Source: Copranaerobaculum intestinale (GTDB taxonomy: Bacteria > Bacillota_I > Bacilli_A > Erysipelotrichales > Erysipelotrichaceae). Taken from it: a stretch of DNA of 12,695 bases. Within the stretch, counting starts at the first letter, position 1. Every line of letters begins with the position of its first letter. This document shows, piece by piece, positions 5,864 to 12,558 of the stretch. The notes beneath the pieces were generated by a model. The model saw nothing but the letters and a program-made list of their open reading frames with translations. It ran no database searches and was not told the origin of the DNA. The DNA is taken from positions 1 to 12,695 of the forward strand of contig NZ_WUUQ01000009.1 of the NCBI RefSeq assembly GCF_009831105.1. The letters run 5' to 3'. The position numbers were made by a program, and so were the translations under genes.

Positions 5864-6505
5864 ATGCTTTCATTGACATCCATTCTGGAAGCGTTATTTT
5901 TAGTCATTGCCCTGTCAATAGATGCGTTTGTGGCAAGCTTTGCCTACGGCAGCGACCGTATTCATATACCATATGTATCTGTCTTTATCATAAGCGGTAT
6001 TTGCAGTCTTGTATTGGGAATCTCTTTATTTATCGGGGTCATGGTCAAGCCATGGGTTCCGGCCTCACTGATCACCGGGATTTGTTTTCTATTGCTGTTT
6101 GCACTGGGCGCTTTTAAAATATTCGACAGCTCCGTGAAACGACTGATCCGCAAATATCATAAGGTTCGTCGGCAGGTTTCCTTTTCCATTTTTCAGCTTC
6201 ATTTTCTGCTTCAAGTATATGCTGATCCGCAATCAGCCGACTACGATCATTCGCGCATACTGAATCCGAGCGAAGCTACTCTTTTGGCAATTTCCCTGTC
6301 TATCGATGGACTGGCCGCGGGATTTTCCGCCGGATTAACCAATCTCAATCCATGGCTGGTGCTGCTGCTCTCCTTCGGCTGCGGCGCCGTCATGGTCATC
6401 AGCGGCAGTAAGCTTGGAAAACTGATGGCTGATAAAAGCCGTTTTGATTTATCTTGGATGGGCGGCTGCATTCTGCTCGTACTAGCTTTTTTTAAATTGA
6501 TGTAA
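5864..6505 (+). CDS. ytaF: YtaF/MntP (DUF204) family membrane protein: putative sporulation membrane protein YtaF or Mn efflux-like
   Basis: 213 aa, polytopic. It has two DUF204-type repeats, each with the SIDAF/SIDGL motif (LSIDAFVASFAYG and LSIDGLAAGFSAG). RBS GGGAGGGGG. Confidence 0.7.
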   Translation: MLSLTSILEALFLVIALSIDAFVASFAYGSDRIHIPYVSVFIISGICSLVLGISLFIGVMVKPWVPASLITGICFLLLFALGAFKIFDSSVKRLIRKYHKVRRQVSFSIFQLHFLLQVYADPQSADYDHSRILNPSEATLLAISLSIDGLAAGFSAGLTNLNPWLVLLLSFGCGAVMVISGSKLGKLMADKSRFDLSWMGGCILLVLAFFKLM

Positions 6506-6516
6506 CAGATTGCATT

Positions 6517-6600
6517 AAAAAAGATATCGTCAATTATGAAGCAAGCTCCTATTACCGGCAACAGCTTTAGGATTTCTTCATGAAGACGATATCTATTTTT
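6517..6600. terminator. long imperfect hairpin, bidirectional terminator between convergent ytaF and the pilT-like gene
   Basis: 10-bp stem (6522-6531 with 6585-6594) plus an 8-bp stem (6534-6541 with 6576-6583, one G-U pair) around a 34-nt loop that has its own 5-bp stem. An A-tract (6517-6522) lies on one side and a T-tract (6596-6600) on the other. Confidence 0.6.
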
Positions 6601-7678
6601 ATTGAGGGAGCAAAGCAATTCGCCGCTGCATGGCATCCGGATTGGTACTGTAGGTAATGGCGGTCGCTTTGGAGATTTTCCCCTCCTGTAACAGCAGGAT
6701 CAGACTTTCATCCATGGTGATCATGCCCGATGCGCGGTTGGAATAAATCGTATTATCAATCTGGTGAGTCTTTGCTTCACGAATTTGCGAGCGGATCGCT
6801 TGATTGGCAATCATGATCTCAAATGCCGGAATCAGGGTACCGTCCACACAAGGAACCAGCTGCTGGGATATAACGGCATGCAGAACCATTGATAATTGAA
6901 TGCGAATCTGCTGCTGCTGATTCGGCGGGAAAACGTCAAGGATTCGATCAATGGTATTGGCTGCGCCGATGGTATGCACAGTTGATAAAATCAAATGTCC
7001 GGTTTCCGCTGCGGTTACCGCTGTTTCGATGGTCTCCAGATCGCGCATCTCGCCTAGCAGAATCACTTCCGGAGCCTGTCTTAAGGCAGAACGCAGAGCA
7101 CTGATATAATCCGTTGTATCATGATCGATTTCCCGCTGAGATACAATGCTTTTTTTATGACGATGCAAAAATTCAATCGGATCCTCAATCGTAACAATAT
7201 GGGTACTGCGCTCTTTATTGATGCGTTCAATGATGCAGGACAAAGTTGTAGATTTACCGCTGCCCGCCGATCCGGTTACCAGAATCAAGCCTTTTTTGAT
7301 CGCATACATATCGGTGATAATTTCCGGTATGTGAAGCTTTTGGGGATCTGGCAAATCAAAAGAAACGACACGAAGCGCAGCAGCTTGAGAATTTCGCTGT
7401 AAATAAGTATTGACACGAAACCTTCCGATCCCCGCCACTGAAAAAGAAAAATCATTGTCGCCATTTTCCAGAAACCGCTCATAGTAAGGATTTTCACCCA
7501 TTTCATATAACAGCTGTACCATCTGGGCAGTGTCAGCCGGTTTCAGCATCTTATCATCCATATATTGAATGGTACCGTTTACCTTCATCGCACACGGACA
7601 GCCGACGACAATAAATAAGTCACTCGCTTCTGCATTTACAGCTTGTTTTAATAAATTTTCCATCATTTCTCTGTTCAT
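6599..7678 (-). CDS. pilT: PilT-family type IV pilus (retraction-type) hexameric ATPase
   Basis: 359 aa. Motifs present: Walker A GSAGSGKST, Asp box IVTIEDPIEF, Walker B ILLGEMRD, His box TGHLILSTVHT, and the PilT-signature helix AIRSQIREAKTHQI (compare AIRNLIRE). The N-terminus ASDLFI...FSFSVAGIGRFRVN parallels PilT. RBS GAGGAGG. ATGA overlap with the upstream ORF. Confidence 0.9.
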   Translation of the reverse strand: MNREMMENLLKQAVNAEASDLFIVVGCPCAMKVNGTIQYMDDKMLKPADTAQMVQLLYEMGENPYYERFLENGDNDFSFSVAGIGRFRVNTYLQRNSQAAALRVVSFDLPDPQKLHIPEIITDMYAIKKGLILVTGSAGSGKSTTLSCIIERINKERSTHIVTIEDPIEFLHRHKKSIVSQREIDHDTTDYISALRSALRQAPEVILLGEMRDLETIETAVTAAETGHLILSTVHTIGAANTIDRILDVFPPNQQQQIRIQLSMVLHAVISQQLVPCVDGTLIPAFEIMIANQAIRSQIREAKTHQIDNTIYSNRASGMITMDESLILLLQEGKISKATAITYSTNPDAMQRRIALLPQ

Positions 7679-8076
7679 TTTGTCGCCTCCTCGCCGGAAA
7701 TGGTTTTCCAGCTGATTACTTGAAGTTTCTTTCCATTTATCTGTAACGTTACCGACAGCCTTTGTTTAGTATTGATTTTAATTTGATATTGGAGCTGATC
7801 ATCCTGCAGTGTGACTTGGCTATCCTTCAGCACCTTCATCGCTTTTTCACTCTTGAAATTACCGTTTAGCTCCATGATATCCTGTAGGATTGACCGCGCT
7901 TCACCATCTGCTTTGTAATATTCCTTTACATACGCTTCCTGCTGTTTTATCCGTTCATTATCATCCGCTGCTTTCATATAGGATAAACAGGACAGAATGG
8001 TGAAGCACATTACCACAAAGACCATAAAAATGGAAATGATTCCGATTCCAAAGCGAAAATGCCCCTGCTTATTCAT
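7675..8076 (-). CDS. small N-terminally anchored protein, pilin-like/ComGG-like or PilN/O-like (hypothetical)
   Basis: 133 aa. It begins MNKQGHFRFG-IGIISIFMVFVV: a basic leader ending in Gly, then a hydrophobic helix with no Glu at +5. A coiled-coil-like segment and a beta-rich C-terminus follow. RBS GAGGGGGGAG. ATGA overlaps at both ends. Confidence 0.65.
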   Translation of the reverse strand: MNKQGHFRFGIGIISIFMVFVVMCFTILSCLSYMKAADDNERIKQQEAYVKEYYKADGEARSILQDIMELNGNFKSEKAMKVLKDSQVTLQDDQLQYQIKINTKQRLSVTLQINGKKLQVISWKTISGEEATK

Positions 8077-8462
8077 GATACTCCCCCCTCACACAAAACC
8101 GTAAACTCCAGCGTCAAAATCGATTTACCGCTTTTGCGCATCTGTAATTCATAGGTAAACAGCTTTTTATCAGCCGCTCGTTCCCGGATCGAAATACGAT
8201 ACTCACTTCTGATGTCGGTCGGCTGCCATTTCGCATTTGCATTCCAGGTACCCACAGGCACTCGATCCTTTGAAGCAATCGCCTGTTCAGCCATCGACTG
8301 TGCTGCCTCCAGCGCTGCGGAGCGCTCTTCGCTCTCGATGCTGCGCTGATTCGCCTGATAGAAGATATTTACGCAGATCACTGCCGCAGCCGCAAAAAAG
8401 AGAATGGCCACGGCCAGTTCAATGAGATAGCTGATAGATGGTGAAATGCGTTCTTTTCTCAT
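8073..8462 (-). CDS. small N-terminally anchored pilin-like protein with degenerate class III signal (hypothetical)
   Basis: 129 aa. The N-terminus MRKERISPSISYLIELAVAILFFAAAAV contains S-Y-L-I-E, resembling the F-T-L-I-E pilin core, but has no Gly at -1. RBS AAGGAG. ATGA overlaps at both ends. Confidence 0.65.
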   Translation of the reverse strand: MRKERISPSISYLIELAVAILFFAAAAVICVNIFYQANQRSIESEERSAALEAAQSMAEQAIASKDRVPVGTWNANAKWQPTDIRSEYRISIRERAADKKLFTYELQMRKSGKSILTLEFTVLCEGGVS

Positions 8463-8935
8463 ACGGACTCCTTATCGCTGCTTCGCAAAATGACCTGCTG
8501 CTTATAATATGTATCCTTATGCTTGATCGTAAAGGTGATTTTGTTTTGTTCCTGCTTCATATCCAGTTGGGATACATTCATGACCAGAGTCCCTTCGCTG
8601 AAATTCACTTCCCGCGCCGCCGGGATCAAGAGCTCATAGAGCTTGTGATCCTGAAAATAAATCAATGTACGGTAAGCTTCCTCCTCCTGTGAGGTCAGCA
8701 CCAGACATGTTTTTCCCTGAATATTTTCTATCCGTACCCCTTTTGATTCATCCTGGCTGCGGACTTTATTCGTTAAATACGCGAGCGGTGTAGACTTTGC
8801 AAAATTATCATCGGCTCGCTGTTCAATTGTTTGATAGGCATCGATCCCATAGAGGATTGCCAGAAAGGAACCGCATGCAAACACGCAGAATAAAACCATC
8901 GGAAAAAGTATCGTATTTCCTTTGCGCAGCTTCAT
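8459..8935 (-). CDS. small N-terminally anchored pilin-like protein (hypothetical, possibly DUF4860/ComGF/ComGG-like)
   Basis: The ORF opens with GTG at 8944 (161 aa), but the RBS AAAGGGAG is well spaced only for the ATG at 8935 (158 aa, MKLRKG-NTILFPMVLFCVFA). It has a short basic leader ending in Gly and a hydrophobic helix without Glu5. Confidence 0.65.
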   Translation of the reverse strand: MKLRKGNTILFPMVLFCVFACGSFLAILYGIDAYQTIEQRADDNFAKSTPLAYLTNKVRSQDESKGVRIENIQGKTCLVLTSQEEEAYRTLIYFQDHKLYELLIPAAREVNFSEGTLVMNVSQLDMKQEQNKITFTIKHKDTYYKQQVILRSSDKESV

Positions 8936-8940
8936 TTGCC

Positions 8941-9237
8941 TCACTCCCTTTCGATTACATAGATTGAAGGCATGATATTACCTCCGTTATAGTCATAAAA
9001 GATCCGATAATCCTTTTGATTGAGATGAAGCGTATATTGAGCCAGCAGTTCTTCTAGTGTTTTGGGATAAATTCCATGCATCGCATAGCACTGTACCGCT
9101 GCCTTCTCAACACTTTCCTGAATGCGTGACGCTTCTTCCCGATGGCTGCTTGCTTCACTTATCGATATTCCATACAGAAAGCCTATCAGCACCACCAGTA
9201 AAAGTACCAGCGCAAGCAGCTTTTTTATCTTTTTCAT
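8941..9237 (-). CDS. 98-aa pilin-like protein with GspG/ComGC-like head but no prepilin cleavage motif
   Basis: MKKIKK followed by a 20-residue hydrophobic helix. Then EKAAVQCYAMHGIYPKTLEELLAQ, which resembles the conserved Y..(D/N)G.YP..L..L segment of T2SS/Com major pseudopilins. It is the same length as ComGC. It has no obvious SD, and its start lies 1 nt after the platform gene stop (TGAtATG). Confidence 0.6.
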   Translation of the reverse strand: MKKIKKLLALVLLLVVLIGFLYGISISEASSHREEASRIQESVEKAAVQCYAMHGIYPKTLEELLAQYTLHLNQKDYRIFYDYNGGNIMPSIYVIERE

Positions 9238-9238
9238 A

Positions 9239-10273
9239 TCAGCTGATCGTCGACATGATGCTGAGCAGCGGAAGCATCACGCTCATCAAAATGATTCCTA
9301 CCACGACTGACAGAGTAATGACAACCGCCGGCTCTACGATATTCAAATAATGTGTGACTGCACGATCGATGTCCTGATCACACAGCTCGGCAATTTCTTT
9401 TAAAACTTTTTCACCGCTGCCGCTGCGAAATCCCATATACAGCATTTTTGCGTACAATCCTTCATATAACTGACTTTCCATCAGCGCATCCTCGAGACGT
9501 TCCCCTTTGGCTAACAGCTGCTGACAGGCCTCCAGCCGCTGAAGGGTTTTGGGATGATCGACCAGTCCGGGCAGCAAAGCCATCGCGCCCTGCATATCAC
9601 AACCGCTGCTTAACAGCAGATTCAAAGCATATGTCAAACGACCTACCGCAATCTTATCGCCGATCCCCCGAAAGAAAATCGATTGCAGCGGATCATGATA
9701 ACCGTGTTTTCTATGCTGATAATATCGATACACCAAAAAGAAGCCAATCAATCCAATAAGAACACAGAGAATGTAGAAGCCATACTGCCCGATCGCCGTA
9801 CCGACAGTAAGCAGTGTAAGCGCCAGCGGTGATAGCTCCGTTCCCAAAGCATGAAGCACATTTTGAAAAATCGGCAGTACTTTTATGACAATGACTCCGA
9901 TCACCACAATCATGATCAATAATAAGAACAGCGGATAGCTTACAACCTCTTTGATTTTTTCTCGAATTTCCATGTTTTGTTTAAAATAGCTGCTCAATGC
10001 ATCCATGACCTCATCCAGATTACCGCTTCGCTCACCGATTTCAATCATCGACAGAACATAGTGATCAAAACAGTTCAGTTCTTCCAATGCCTTTGACAAT
10101 GTACCATGCAGAATCAATGATTCTTTGATTTGATGAATCAGCTGAGAATCCATATCTCCCTGATCCATCACCTGAAGACCATCGATGATCGGAATACCAG
10201 TATGCAGAATCAGCGCCAGCTGTGAGCAAAATGCGTATGCTTCCTGATCATGCATTTTCTTTCCTGCTTTCAT
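9239..10273 (-). CDS. type II secretion system F family platform protein (PilC/ComGB-like, two T2SSF domains)
   Basis: 344 aa. Two repeats of the T2SSF pattern are present: FCSQLALILHTGIPIIDGL...GERSGNLDEVM...SYPLFLL...VLPIF, and LTYALNLLLSSGCDMQGAM...GFRSGSGEKVL...IVEPAVVI...MLPLLSIM. RBS AAGGAGG overlaps the upstream stop. Confidence 0.88.
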   Translation of the reverse strand: MKAGKKMHDQEAYAFCSQLALILHTGIPIIDGLQVMDQGDMDSQLIHQIKESLILHGTLSKALEELNCFDHYVLSMIEIGERSGNLDEVMDALSSYFKQNMEIREKIKEVVSYPLFLLLIMIVVIGVIVIKVLPIFQNVLHALGTELSPLALTLLTVGTAIGQYGFYILCVLIGLIGFFLVYRYYQHRKHGYHDPLQSIFFRGIGDKIAVGRLTYALNLLLSSGCDMQGAMALLPGLVDHPKTLQRLEACQQLLAKGERLEDALMESQLYEGLYAKMLYMGFRSGSGEKVLKEIAELCDQDIDRAVTHYLNIVEPAVVITLSVVVGIILMSVMLPLLSIMSTIS

Positions 10274-10285
10274 CCTTATTCCTCC

Positions 10286-11185
10286 TTAATAGACATAACG
10301 GTTCTTATACTCACCGTCATACTCTTCACCCTGTGCCGCAAATGTCGGATCGATGCGGTTCCAGATCTTCTTTTTAAAATATACCTGAGGATTGATCCAG
10401 CCCTTTTCTTTAACCCATACTTCAATCCAGGAATGATACTCCTTGCTGGTATAGCCGGTAATCATCCGGGTCGGAATCTGTTGTGAGCGCAGCATTGCCG
10501 CTAAAAGCGCGGTGTAATCAAAACAGATACCTTTATTTGTGACATATGTTTCATCAATGATCGGAAGGACAAACTTATCGGCAACATCCTTAGCTTTTTG
10601 ATCATCGTATTTCACATGAGAAATTACATAATTATAAATATGATAAATGCGGGAAAGATCGGTTTTATCATTCTTTACCAAAGCAAATGCTTTTTTTACC
10701 GCTTTGCTTTCCGGTGTGTAATCAATATATTGACTCGGATAAAGATACGGCAGTTTAGCATCCGCCAACTTCACATCTACGTCCACAGAATGCATGACCG
10801 CATATTGATCACCCTGCTTCTGTTTCAGAATCCGAAATTGATACATGCCGTTTCCCATCTGTAAAGGAAAGCTTTCATAGTCTGTCTTTTTTAGATCATA
10901 ATAATAGACTTCTTTTCCCTTGCTTACCGCCAGTTTCAAAACATCCGGTGAATCCGTGATCCGCTTTGCACAGATATAGCCCTGATCGGTATTGCTGTAA
11001 TCGATCATCGCTAATCCGGTCGGGTCCTGAGCAATCAGAGTCCCGGGACTGCTTGGCATATACATATCTTCTATTTTAGCGGCCGGTGTTTCTACCCCTT
11101 TGCTGGGATATTCTTTGTTTGCGCTTGTCGAACAGGCAGTCGTGAATGCGAGCAGAAAAACCAGTACTATACAGATTCGTTTCAT
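10286..11185 (-). CDS. transglutaminase-like cysteine protease domain lipoprotein
   Basis: 299 aa. Signal peptide with a lipobox-like FTTAC. The C-terminal transglutaminase core carries the Cys-His-Asp triad context: KGICFDYTALLAAMLRSQQIPTRMITGY, YHSWIEVW, GWINPQ...RIDPT. Confidence 0.85.
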   Translation of the reverse strand: MKRICIVLVFLLAFTTACSTSANKEYPSKGVETPAAKIEDMYMPSSPGTLIAQDPTGLAMIDYSNTDQGYICAKRITDSPDVLKLAVSKGKEVYYYDLKKTDYESFPLQMGNGMYQFRILKQKQGDQYAVMHSVDVDVKLADAKLPYLYPSQYIDYTPESKAVKKAFALVKNDKTDLSRIYHIYNYVISHVKYDDQKAKDVADKFVLPIIDETYVTNKGICFDYTALLAAMLRSQQIPTRMITGYTSKEYHSWIEVWVKEKGWINPQVYFKKKIWNRIDPTFAAQGEEYDGEYKNRYVY

Positions 11186-11210
11186 ATGCCCGCCTCACTT
11201 TCTTCCTCTA

Positions 11211-12077
11211 TTATAAGTTCTTTAACCACTCCAACGCAATCGTTTCAGACACGATCCGCGTACCGTTGTCTCCATGCCCCAAGCCGTGCTCCACTTTATG
11301 CAGATCACTGCCGCCGCTTTTATACAGATGATGCCGATCACAATAGTCCAGCAGCTGTTCACTGTTTGTCCAGCTATGCCGCCGGTGCAGACATTCTATT
11401 CCATCCAGCAGCTGTTCATCAACAAGCTGATCGATTAACTTCCATGTATCTGATACATCATAGACAAACGGGTGAGCCAAAAACGTTAAACCGCCGCTGG
11501 CGTGAATTGCATCAGCAACCTGTTTCATCCCCGGTGCATGTTTCTCCTGTTCCATATAAAACGGACTTTTTGGATTCAGATAATGATTACGGTAAAAAGT
11601 TGTGCGATTTTTAATATGCATTTCATCCAGCCGTATTTTATTTTCGGGATACGCCATCAGCTGATCACACAGCACATCATTTGCCCGTTCATAGCTTGCT
11701 TTGATCCGTACTTGCCGATTTATCTTCAATCCCAGCCCTTCACATATTGTGAAAAGTGAATCCAAGCGGCTTTGTTCCCGACGCATAATCTTTGCTTCGT
11801 CGTGGTGGTGAAGTAATCCGCTTGCTTCCATGCGTTTTCGATCTACCCCATATCCTAACATATCCATTGTTAAGCCTCGATAAGAAAAAGTCATTTCAAT
11901 ACCGGGCACCAGCGTTCCATGAAAAAGCTGCTGCTCTTCCATATGCTGATAAGCCTCCATATTGTCATGATCAGTAATCGCAAAATAGCAAAGCTTATGA
12001 TCCTCGGCGAGCTTCAGCAGTTGGTTTGGCGTACAGATGCCGTCTGAATAGCTGCTGTGTGTGTGCAGATCCATCAT
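11211..12077 (-). CDS. PHP domain metal-dependent phosphoesterase (TrpH/YciV-like)
   Basis: 288 aa. Motifs MDLHTHSSYSDG, AITDHD, GIE, LAHPF and GGSDLH. RBS AAAGGAG 7 nt upstream. Its stop lies 25 nt before the lipoprotein gene, with no terminator between them. Confidence 0.85.
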   Translation of the reverse strand: MMDLHTHSSYSDGICTPNQLLKLAEDHKLCYFAITDHDNMEAYQHMEEQQLFHGTLVPGIEMTFSYRGLTMDMLGYGVDRKRMEASGLLHHHDEAKIMRREQSRLDSLFTICEGLGLKINRQVRIKASYERANDVLCDQLMAYPENKIRLDEMHIKNRTTFYRNHYLNPKSPFYMEQEKHAPGMKQVADAIHASGGLTFLAHPFVYDVSDTWKLIDQLVDEQLLDGIECLHRRHSWTNSEQLLDYCDRHHLYKSGGSDLHKVEHGLGHGDNGTRIVSETIALEWLKNL

Positions 12078-12114
12078 AAAGTAGCTCCTTTCGGATGAAA
12101 TAGTATCATAGATA

Positions 12115-12123
12115 TGATATAAT
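12115..12123 (+). promoter_or_regulatory. candidate extended -10 promoter of the VOC gene
   Basis: The plus strand reads TGATATAAT. Its TATAAT (12118-12123) overlaps the minus-strand TATAAT (12122-12127) by 2 nt. Confidence 0.45.
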
Positions 12124-12150
12124 TATACCATAAAGAGAAACCTGTTTCTC
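12122..12150 (-). promoter_or_regulatory. candidate extended -10 promoter of the PHP-to-pilT operon, with palindrome over the -35 region
   Basis: The minus strand reads TGGTATAAT (12122-12130). The best -35-like hexamer, TTGAGA, sits at a suboptimal 19-nt spacing. The perfect inverted repeat GAGAAAC-CT-GTTTCTC (12135-12150) covers that region. Confidence 0.5.
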
Positions 12151-12198
12151 AAACCATAACACCGAAAAATGATTCATTCAAAGTCTGGAGGGAAGTTT

Positions 12199-12558
12199 AT
12201 GAATTCATTCGTCGCTTTTTATCCCTGCCGGGATATTGAGGAAACCAAGACCTTCTATACCAATGTCCTGCATTTCCCGATCTGGCATGAACAATACAAG
12301 GCCGTTATCTTTGATACCGGATACGGCTATCTGGGATTTGCCCAGTATGCAGATAAACCTCTGGCTACATCAGTCATTATCTCGTTCAACTGTCAGGATG
12401 AGGTAGAAGTAGATGCCATGTATAAGCGTTTCTATGAAATGGATGAGATTCATCTGCTGTCATATCCGAAGCGGCAGGATGGATTCGATGTTTACTCGTT
12501 CTTCATTGAAGATCCAAATGGTTATCAGTTGGAATTTCAGAAAATTTTAGGATTATAA
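12199..12558 (+). CDS. VOC (glyoxalase/bleomycin resistance/dioxygenase fold) family protein
   Basis: About 119 aa, small beta-alpha-beta-beta-beta fold pattern ending FFIEDPNGYQLEFQ. The ORF opens at 12169, but GGAGGG (12187-12192) is correctly spaced for the ATG at 12199. Confidence 0.75.
   Translation: MNSFVAFYPCRDIEETKTFYTNVLHFPIWHEQYKAVIFDTGYGYLGFAQYADKPLATSVIISFNCQDEVEVDAMYKRFYEMDEIHLLSYPKRQDGFDVYSFFIEDPNGYQLEFQKILGL

Follow-up and report, generated by a model that had tools for sequence, protein, structure and literature searches.

A PilT-clade ATPase as the probable dedicated motor of a conserved, pilus-like gene cassette in Copranaerobaculum intestinale and other gut Firmicutes

The window analyzed here is one entire contig of 12,695 nucleotides (12.7 kb; NZ_WUUQ01000009.1) from the 2.3-Mb, 98.9% complete assembly GCF_009831105.1 of Copranaerobaculum intestinale, a member of the Erysipelotrichales. 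On its minus strand it carries a seven-gene cassette encoding, in this order, a transglutaminase-like lipoprotein, a GspF-like platform protein, four small, putatively pilin-like proteins (p1 to p4, of which p2 belongs to family DUF4860) and a PilT-family ATPase (6599–7678). The ATPase is probably, with a likelihood that we put at roughly 0.6, a dedicated PilT-type motor that serves a type IV filament-like machine without a partner ATPase and that originated as a duplicate of a clostridial PilT; this function is predicted from sequence, phylogeny and gene context. The cassette is a small and widespread pilus-like gene set of gut Firmicutes that is apparently unstudied. Literature searches on DUF4860, on PilT with transglutaminase-like proteins and on PilT in the Erysipelotrichaceae returned nothing relevant, and no paper on the cassette.

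The ATPase open reading frame (ORF) encodes 359 amino acids (aa) and occupies 6599–7678 of the minus strand; the initial annotation of the window, made from the letters alone, gave no strand, and the plus-strand translation of the interval is riddled with stops. The ATG start at 7678 shares the sequence ATGA, a 4-nt overlap, with the TGA stop of the 133-aa gene before it and is preceded at about 8 nt by a GGAGG ribosome-binding site, and the TAA stop lies at 6601–6599. As annotated, the gene is the last of a tightly packed, co-oriented set. Every catalytic motif that had been quoted was found in the translation, namely Walker A (VTGSAGSGKSTT), the Asp box (IVTIEDPIEF), Walker B (VILLGEMRD) and the His box (TGHLILSTVHT), and the C-terminal helix, AIRSQIREAKTHQI, reads AIRSQIRE where the consensus is AIRNLIRE. 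The protein has the two-domain PilT architecture (N2D plus C-terminal domain, the type of about 345 aa), and its residues 8–354 align end to end on residues 17–362 of Aquifex PilT. The translation also bears out the PilT-like length and the absence of PilB-type N-terminal domains and of a cysteine-rich zinc motif: there is neither an N1D/MshEN-type N-terminal extension nor a CxxC...CxxC motif, and the only cysteines are C27, C29, C148 and C277, with no CxxC pair in the C-terminal domain. Among 23 orthologues the catalytic motifs are invariant, residues K142, E165/D166/E169, E210/D213 and H228/H235 are invariant or nearly so, and the arginine-rich N2D stretch R86/R88/R95/R103 is also kept. Because of this invariance at catalytic and arginine-rich positions, the predicted hexameric ATPase is very probably catalytically intact and active.

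On every sequence criterion the cassette ATPase is a genuine member of the PilT clade. It scores 413.9 bits against the PilT/PilU family model TIGR01420 (cut-off 319.1), covering model positions 2–342 of 343, and stays below the cut-offs of the extension-ATPase models (ComGA, 128 bits against 300; GspE, 121 against 630; PilB, 115 against 676). The TadA/CpaF model TIGR03819 gives 44.2 bits against a cut-off of 373, placing the protein outside that clade, and the 60 bits obtained with the FlaI model are likewise far below cut-off. The best matches in the Protein Data Bank (PDB) are all PilTs, from Aquifex (330 bits), Geobacter (PilT4, 306) and G. metallireducens (295), followed by Thermus PilT (270), P. 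aeruginosa PilT (268) and PilU (247), with DotB (129), PilB (at most 89), GspE (84) and FlaI (46) as distant matches. 

The phylogeny had been set beforehand as a test on which this assignment could fail, and both trees, like the model scores, place the enzyme inside PilT and not inside ComGA/PilB. The smaller maximum-likelihood tree (LG+C20, 67 rows) held 23 cassette ATPases with PilT, PilB and ComGA paralogues of the same order, five PilTs from the PDB alignments and E. coli YggR, GspE and HofB; PilU was not among its rows, and by PDB score is farther from the ATPase than PilT is (247 versus 330 bits). PilT separates from PilB/GspE/ComGA with support of 100/100, the window's ATPase falls on the PilT side, and the cassette ATPases are monophyletic (100/100) on a stem of 0.56, outside of which the P. 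aeruginosa, Aquifex, Geobacter and Thermus PilTs branch. The larger tree, with 129 rows, unites the 39 cassette ATPases of both Erysipelotrichales and Clostridia, plus a single orphan, in one clade (SH-aLRT 99); the sister of this clade (support 98) is a group of eight clostridial PilTs, and five of these adjoin pilB. Members from the Erysipelotrichales and the Clostridia are intermixed within the cassette clade, and this branching therefore suggests that the cassette has been transferred between the two classes. The orphan, which carries the motif SDIF, comes from a Ruthenibacterium metagenome-assembled genome (L090, 8926–11005); no platform or p1–p4 gene lies near it. A two-component system precedes it, and the gene after it encodes a 321-aa protein whose prepilin signal, GFTLIE, is canonical.

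The ATPase resembles canonical PilT (P. aeruginosa 3JVU, Aquifex 2EWV, G. metallireducens 6OJX) in family model, length, catalytic boxes and the AIRNLIRE-like helix, and differs from it in forming its own subclade with characteristic substitutions. When the 23 cassette ATPases were compared with 19 canonical PilTs for fixed differences, the N-terminal motif SDxH was found to read SDxF (His to Phe) in 23/23 versus 0/19. The cassette clade also has Ala for Thr in Walker A (GPTGSGKST to GPAGSGKST), Lys for Arg at residue 32 of the window's ATPase and at the equivalent of P. aeruginosa PilT R123, and an insertion of three residues near positions 55–60. McCallum et al. reported that the PilT substitution R123D, aimed at the all-closed hexamer, lowers PilC binding, and that the conformations which the hexamers prefer are conserved inside each of the PilB-like and PilT-like subfamilies, though not across the two (PMC6858323).

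The gene context of this ATPase is strictly conserved. Relatives with about 60–66% identity, annotated as PilT in Thomasclavelia, Amedibacillus, Longicatena and ‘Clostridium minihomine’, stand at the end of the series transglutaminase-like protein, T2SSF protein, about 100 aa, DUF4860, about 120 aa, about 125–160 aa and T2SSE protein. The seven-gene order is the same in 38/38 loci, comprising all 22 fetched for the Erysipelotrichales set and all 16 Clostridia cassettes from a scan of named genomes, the hosts of the latter being Acetivibrio, Ruminococcus, Lachnospiraceae, Faecalicatena contorta, Oscillospiraceae, Pilosibacter, Pseudobutyrivibrio ruminis AD2017, Limivicinus and Ruminiclostridium. 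BLAST located the lipoprotein gene in 21 of the 22 loci of the first set. Among the 16 Clostridia loci it is present in 14, and two could not be scored because their contigs end within or just upstream of the platform gene. In 199 sampled genomes of the order, DUF4860 occurs in 66, spread over 32 of 77 genera, and wherever the coordinates of both were visible (37/37 genomes) a PilT-type match lies about 1 kb downstream of it. An exhaustive profile search returned 3,329 DUF4860 clusters at 50% identity; a single-sequence search of a word-indexed database had found only four relatives.

This context also sets the cassette ATPase apart from canonical PilT, which in monoderm loci sits in the arrangement pilB-pilT-pilC (S. 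sanguinis, Clostridia), as do the canonical PilTs recovered in the same Clostridia scan. The cassette ATPase is never found beside pilB and always comes last, after a private platform gene and four pilin-like genes. No PilB or ComGA gene occurs within 5–9 kb of the cassette in any of the 38 loci; consistent co-localization of a PilB-type gene, which would have spoken against a lone motor, was thus looked for at all related loci and found at none.

The initial annotation called the ATPase the sole motor, which holds for the operon but not for the genome. Elsewhere the genome encodes PilB (557 aa; 412 bits to Geobacter PilB), a canonical PilT (349 aa), ComGA (332 aa) and a weakly matching TadA/VirB11-like ATPase, so that the proposed check of the remaining genome for PilB/ComGA paralogues found both, on other contigs. 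A prepilin peptidase is likewise encoded outside the cassette. The type IVa locus comprises PilA (with KGFTLVE), PilD, PilC, PilM/N/O, three minor pilins, PilB and PilT; it is complete, of canonical monoderm type, and lies on contig C9 (L012, 3809–13659), where the PilM-like frame is apparently split into two ORFs (6314–6910 and 6944–7195), possibly by a frameshift or an assembly error. A full comGA-comGG operon, whose pilins have canonical GFTLxE signals, lies on the minus strand of contig C4 (L013, 5966–9471). The genome thus has three separate platform-containing systems, namely the cassette, the type IVa pilus and ComG. The cassette ATPase is 42% identical to the canonical PilT of the genome, and the cassette platform 24% identical to its PilC.

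With these paralogues present, the cassette enzyme might be a retraction-only motor that acts in trans, disassembling what PilB or ComGA assembles from elsewhere. Such an arrangement would fit the textbook role of PilT (PMC10191384), and its potential partners are at hand, not only on other contigs of this genome but also in every well-assembled Erysipelotrichales genome checked, all of which have at least ComGA and a prepilin peptidase. We nevertheless consider it unlikely. The partner would be inconstant, since some hosts have PilB plus ComGA, about 19 of 65 offer ComGA alone, and P. ruminis AD2017 has just a TadA/VirB11-like ATPase; PilB and ComGA adjoin platforms of their own (PilC and ComGB), whereas the cassette supplies a third, divergent platform; and neither gene lies in the neighborhood of any of the 38 cassettes.

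The distribution of partner ATPases bears directly on two alternatives that had been left standing, namely that the cassette motor itself drives assembly or bidirectional movement, or that the system relies on an extension ATPase encoded elsewhere. Of the 65 further genomes of the order with DUF4860, about 19 have no PilB-type match. This count is soft, because in two genomes initially taken to lack PilB, fragments of it were later located where contigs end; calls of absence for partner ATPases in general depend in part on draft assemblies. In five genomes without PilB and with a completeness of at least 99%, including one with a closed 2.66-Mb chromosome, there are exactly two genuine T2SSE-family ATPases, a ComGA-like one and that of the cassette, and each genome also has a prepilin peptidase. 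P. ruminis AD2017 lacks both PilB and ComGA, and the sole other family member there is the TadA/VirB11-like protein (TIGR03819, 271 bits; ComGA, 68; PilB, 55). The evidence favors, though it does not prove, a self-sufficient cassette motor over reliance on an extension ATPase encoded elsewhere, because the would-be partner varies across hosts and because PilB and ComGA each adjoin their own platform. The cassette persists without PilB, in one closed genome among others, and without PilB and ComGA in one isolate.

The same distribution bears on the notion that the enzyme is a spare or specialized PilT for a canonical type IVa pilus, with its neighbors as accessory genes, comparable to PilU or to the extra PilTs of Myxococcus, Geobacter and cyanobacteria. 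Paralogues of PilT occur commonly (PMC6668835), and the identity of 42% and the shared family model would be in keeping with such a role. We regard this as very improbable, since the cassette is present in genomes that lack PilB, canonical PilT and PilC, including the closed genome G025, and in some that lack PilA as well, and since the ATPase is translationally coupled to its own platform and pilin-like set, in a fixed order, in two bacterial classes. The PilB-partner context of a type IVa pilus was accordingly found neither at the 38 loci nor in the genomes without PilB and PilC.

The remaining cassette genes would fit a machine related to type IV filaments. The platform protein (9239–10273, minus strand; 344 aa) has two T2SSF domains (PF00482, 116.5 bits in two stretches) and is encoded directly upstream of p1 in all cassettes. 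The initial annotation had described it as ComGB-like; it is a platform protein of the GspF/PilC family, but the specific attribution to ComGB was rejected, as the GspF and PilC models score higher (168 and 158 bits) than ComGB (121 bits), all three below cut-off.

Downstream of the platform, p1 (8941–9237, minus strand) is a small, putatively pilin-like protein of 98 aa with a transmembrane helix followed by CYA-x-EG-x-YP-x-x-L. It has neither Gly-1 nor Glu5 and combines a hydrophobic N-terminal helix with an invariant Y..G.YP motif. Its AlphaFold2 (AF2) model (pLDDT 87.4) consists of a 53-residue helix (2–54), a short helix and a beta hairpin. The best PDB profile matches, to TcpA and gonococcal pilin (PilE), are weak (E 0.4–1) and run over this Y..G.YP stretch; an alignment to ComGC with hhalign has a sensible register at a probability below 4%. 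Foldseek found no PDB match to the p1 model at E ≤0.001, and its pilin matches are leads only. The p1 family has at least 671 members, every one named ‘hypothetical’, and no Pfam model. Across the small proteins, the matches of highest probability include pilins (TcpA, PilE, a Shewanella pilin), none of them significant.

The DUF4860 protein p2 (8459–8944, minus strand; PF16152, 79.2 bits) has 161 aa if read from GTG, or 158 aa from the ATG at 8935 that is used in database entry P0121. Its AF2 model (pLDDT 88.7) shows a 59-residue helix (9–67) followed by eight strands; Foldseek found nothing in the PDB at E ≤0.001, and the matches of highest probability are the minor pseudopilins EpsJ and XcpW. 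The third protein, p3 (8073–8462, minus strand; 129 aa), has a Glu in its N-terminal hydrophobic helix (..FLMELII..) and no Gly at –1. This residue, Glu15, is invariant in 23 sequences; in weak profile matches to type IV pilins of the PDB (E 0.4–1) it aligns on pilin Glu5, and in an hhalign comparison with ComGF it falls on the GFTLIEM segment, in a sensible register but at a probability below 4%. The fourth, p4 (7675–8076, minus strand; 133 aa), is membrane-anchored, has the N-terminus G-x-G-x-x-S-x-F-M-I-F-V-I-L, and is kept at its position in 22/22 fetched cassettes; it had no match in Pfam or NCBIfam, and by eye its N-terminus resembles PilX_N/ComGG. No class III signal (Gly-1, Glu+5) is recognizable in these families, which have no conserved Gly-1 and a Glu in p3 only, and the cassette has no prepilin peptidase gene. 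Judged by their sequences and by the AF2 models of p1 and p2, p1 to p4 are probably diverged, pilin-like, uncleaved subunits. 

The first conserved gene of the cassette (10286–11185, minus strand) encodes the lipoprotein, which has a transglutaminase-like, cysteine-protease fold (PF01841, 77.3 bits) and as its best PDB match 3isr, a ‘transglutaminase-like putative cysteine protease’.

The nature of p1 to p4 leaves some room for a system that makes no filament at all. The platform and ATPase would then pull the four anchored proteins or the lipoprotein out of the membrane, or insert them into it, without a polymer, and PilT-type ‘pull-down’ chemistry would have been put to a non-pilus use. The lack of Glu5 in p1, p2 and p4 and of a prepilin-peptidase site in all four would agree with this, as would the weak structural matches to pilins and the fact that no abundant, major-pilin-like subunit can be singled out. 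We judge it improbable, since the models of p1 and p2 show the pilin layout of a 53–59-residue N-terminal helix and a beta domain at pLDDT 87–89, since p3 keeps an invariant Glu at the pilin position, and since four such subunits beside a platform reproduce the layout of the GspH-K and ComGD-G sets. A sporulation channel of SpoIIIAA/AB type was also considered and dropped, given the score of the ATPase above the PilT cut-off and a different order of genes.

The core of a type IV filament system consists of pilins with class III signals, a prepilin peptidase, an extension ATPase and a platform (PMC10191384); the cassette has the GspF/PilC-family platform and lacks the other three, its only ATPase being of the PilT clade. 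Denise et al. describe no PilT-only system (PMC6668835). A parallel in organization is CpaF of the Tad (type IVc) pilus, which likewise is one ATPase per platform and filament set, with no antagonist, and which is the sole established precedent of a lone motor for extension and retraction (PMC12019362). CpaF belongs to another ATPase clade, however, and Tad has Flp pilins, a dedicated TadV peptidase and two platform proteins. With ComG (ComGA-ComGG plus ComC) the cassette shares a monoderm host, a platform of ComGB-like length and the succession of a subunit of about 100 aa and three of 130–160 aa; in ComG, by contrast, the ATPase is encoded first and is of the extension clade, the pilins have GFTLxE signals, and there is no counterpart of the transglutaminase-like lipoprotein that the cassette adds. 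The type II secretion system (T2SS; GspE/GspF, GspG, GspH-K) also combines a platform with a small GspG-like and several minor-pseudopilin-like subunits, and members of its GspJ family (EpsJ, XcpW) are the non-significant fold matches of highest probability to the DUF4860 model. It differs in its GspE, which is of the extension clade with a zinc motif, in its peptidase-processed subunits and in its outer-membrane secretin. A T2SS-like, wall-crossing role has been proposed as a hypothesis for the type IV pilus genes of C. perfringens (PMC11580942), and by analogy a wall-crossing piston is conceivable for the cassette. PilT is needed for extension of the MSHA pilus of V. cholerae (Hughes et al. 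2022, PMC9815625); a PilT-clade motor can thus promote extension as well as retraction, but MSHA has its own extension ATPase, MshE, and the cassette has none.

In the scenario that we favor, a clostridial PilT was duplicated and then recruited as the dedicated, sole motor of the seven-gene machine. The ATPase hexamer would dock on the cassette's own platform, and ATP hydrolysis would turn or lift the platform, whose movement would shift p1 to p4 between the membrane and a short, pseudopilus-like stack. These subunits, of which only p3 has kept the pilin Glu, would be anchored by their uncleaved N-terminal helices. If no extension ATPase is needed, the motor would have to be bidirectional, like CpaF of the Tad system, or else drive movement one way, with the reverse occurring spontaneously. 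Speculatively, its likeliest output would be a piston or short fiber that moves cargo across the Gram-positive wall, for instance the lipoprotein enzyme or neighboring surface proteins. A more far-reaching version holds that a PilT-clade motor with changed or lost directionality assembles, and perhaps retracts, a peptidase-independent pseudopilus of four uncleaved pilin-like proteins, and that this constitutes a new class of machine, a wall-crossing piston or short fiber of gut Clostridia and Erysipelotrichales that works with a surface enzyme of transglutaminase fold. This version we hold to be tentative and, as a whole, doubtful.

Several observations weigh against a dedicated motor without a partner. 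Besides the contig-end fragments that soften the PilB-less count, nearly every cassette-bearing genome examined has another secretion-type ATPase, ComGA in the Erysipelotrichales and a TadA-like protein in P. ruminis, and the only two genomes in which the cassette ATPase stands alone are fragmented drafts of 92–95% completeness. In C. intestinale itself PilB, a second PilT and ComGA are encoded, and cross-talk with them is possible. In the standard model PilT only depolymerizes (PMC10191384, PMC6858323). A true filament may not form from subunits three of which lack the pilin Glu5 and all of which lack Gly-1, and the resemblance to pilins and pseudopilins that Foldseek reports for the models of p1 and p2 does not reach significance.

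The surroundings of the cassette vary from locus to locus. In the window, a co-oriented gene for a PHP-family phosphoesterase (11211–12077, minus strand; PF02811, 33.2 bits) ends only 25 nt upstream of the lipoprotein gene. BLAST found no homologue beside any of the 22 related cassettes; the gene was therefore excluded from the conserved unit and rejected as an eighth operon member, and it is probably a local neighbor. A scan of 6300–12400 for promoters and terminators gave counts no higher than in shuffled sequences. In 15 of the 38 loci the cassette directly adjoins the gene of a regulator of about 400 aa that has a BTAD (SARP-type) domain and a C-terminus weakly like GGDEF; this gene lies on the upstream side, next to that of the lipoprotein, or on the downstream side, next to that of the ATPase (for example L085, 3488–4879; L017, 2825–4039; L015, 9230–10408); it is absent from the short contig of the window. 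Some cassettes have a sortase nearby (L017, 9168–10160; L040; L073), four have a weak match to an S26, SipW-like signal peptidase (L037, 9686–10204, and three others), and one has a 1002-aa VWA protein (L017, 1–2456). The recurrence of sortase, SipW-like peptidase and VWA genes fits the idea of a machine that serves surface or matrix proteins. A genome of the same family (G136) has two DUF4860 matches (C7, 5012–5299; C3, 154174–154440) and may hold two cassettes. A complete, Firmicutes-type cassette also occurs on an 11.9-kb contig labeled Prevotella sp. (L074), most likely a binning error rather than a transfer to the Bacteroidota.

The direction in which such motors work has been attributed to the conformations that each clade prefers, with PilB-like enzymes driving extension and PilT-like enzymes retraction (PMC6858323). 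A conserved machine driven by a PilT-clade ATPase alone would offer a natural test of whether such a motor suffices for a filament system, and of whether clade membership dictates direction or a handful of substitutions can change it. The cassette is common, being present in a third of the sampled Erysipelotrichales genomes and in many Lachnospiraceae and Oscillospiraceae. It would add an apparently unstudied envelope machine to abundant gut commensals, and it could explain protein families that have no assigned function, namely DUF4860 and the p1, p3 and p4 families, for which Pfam has no model.

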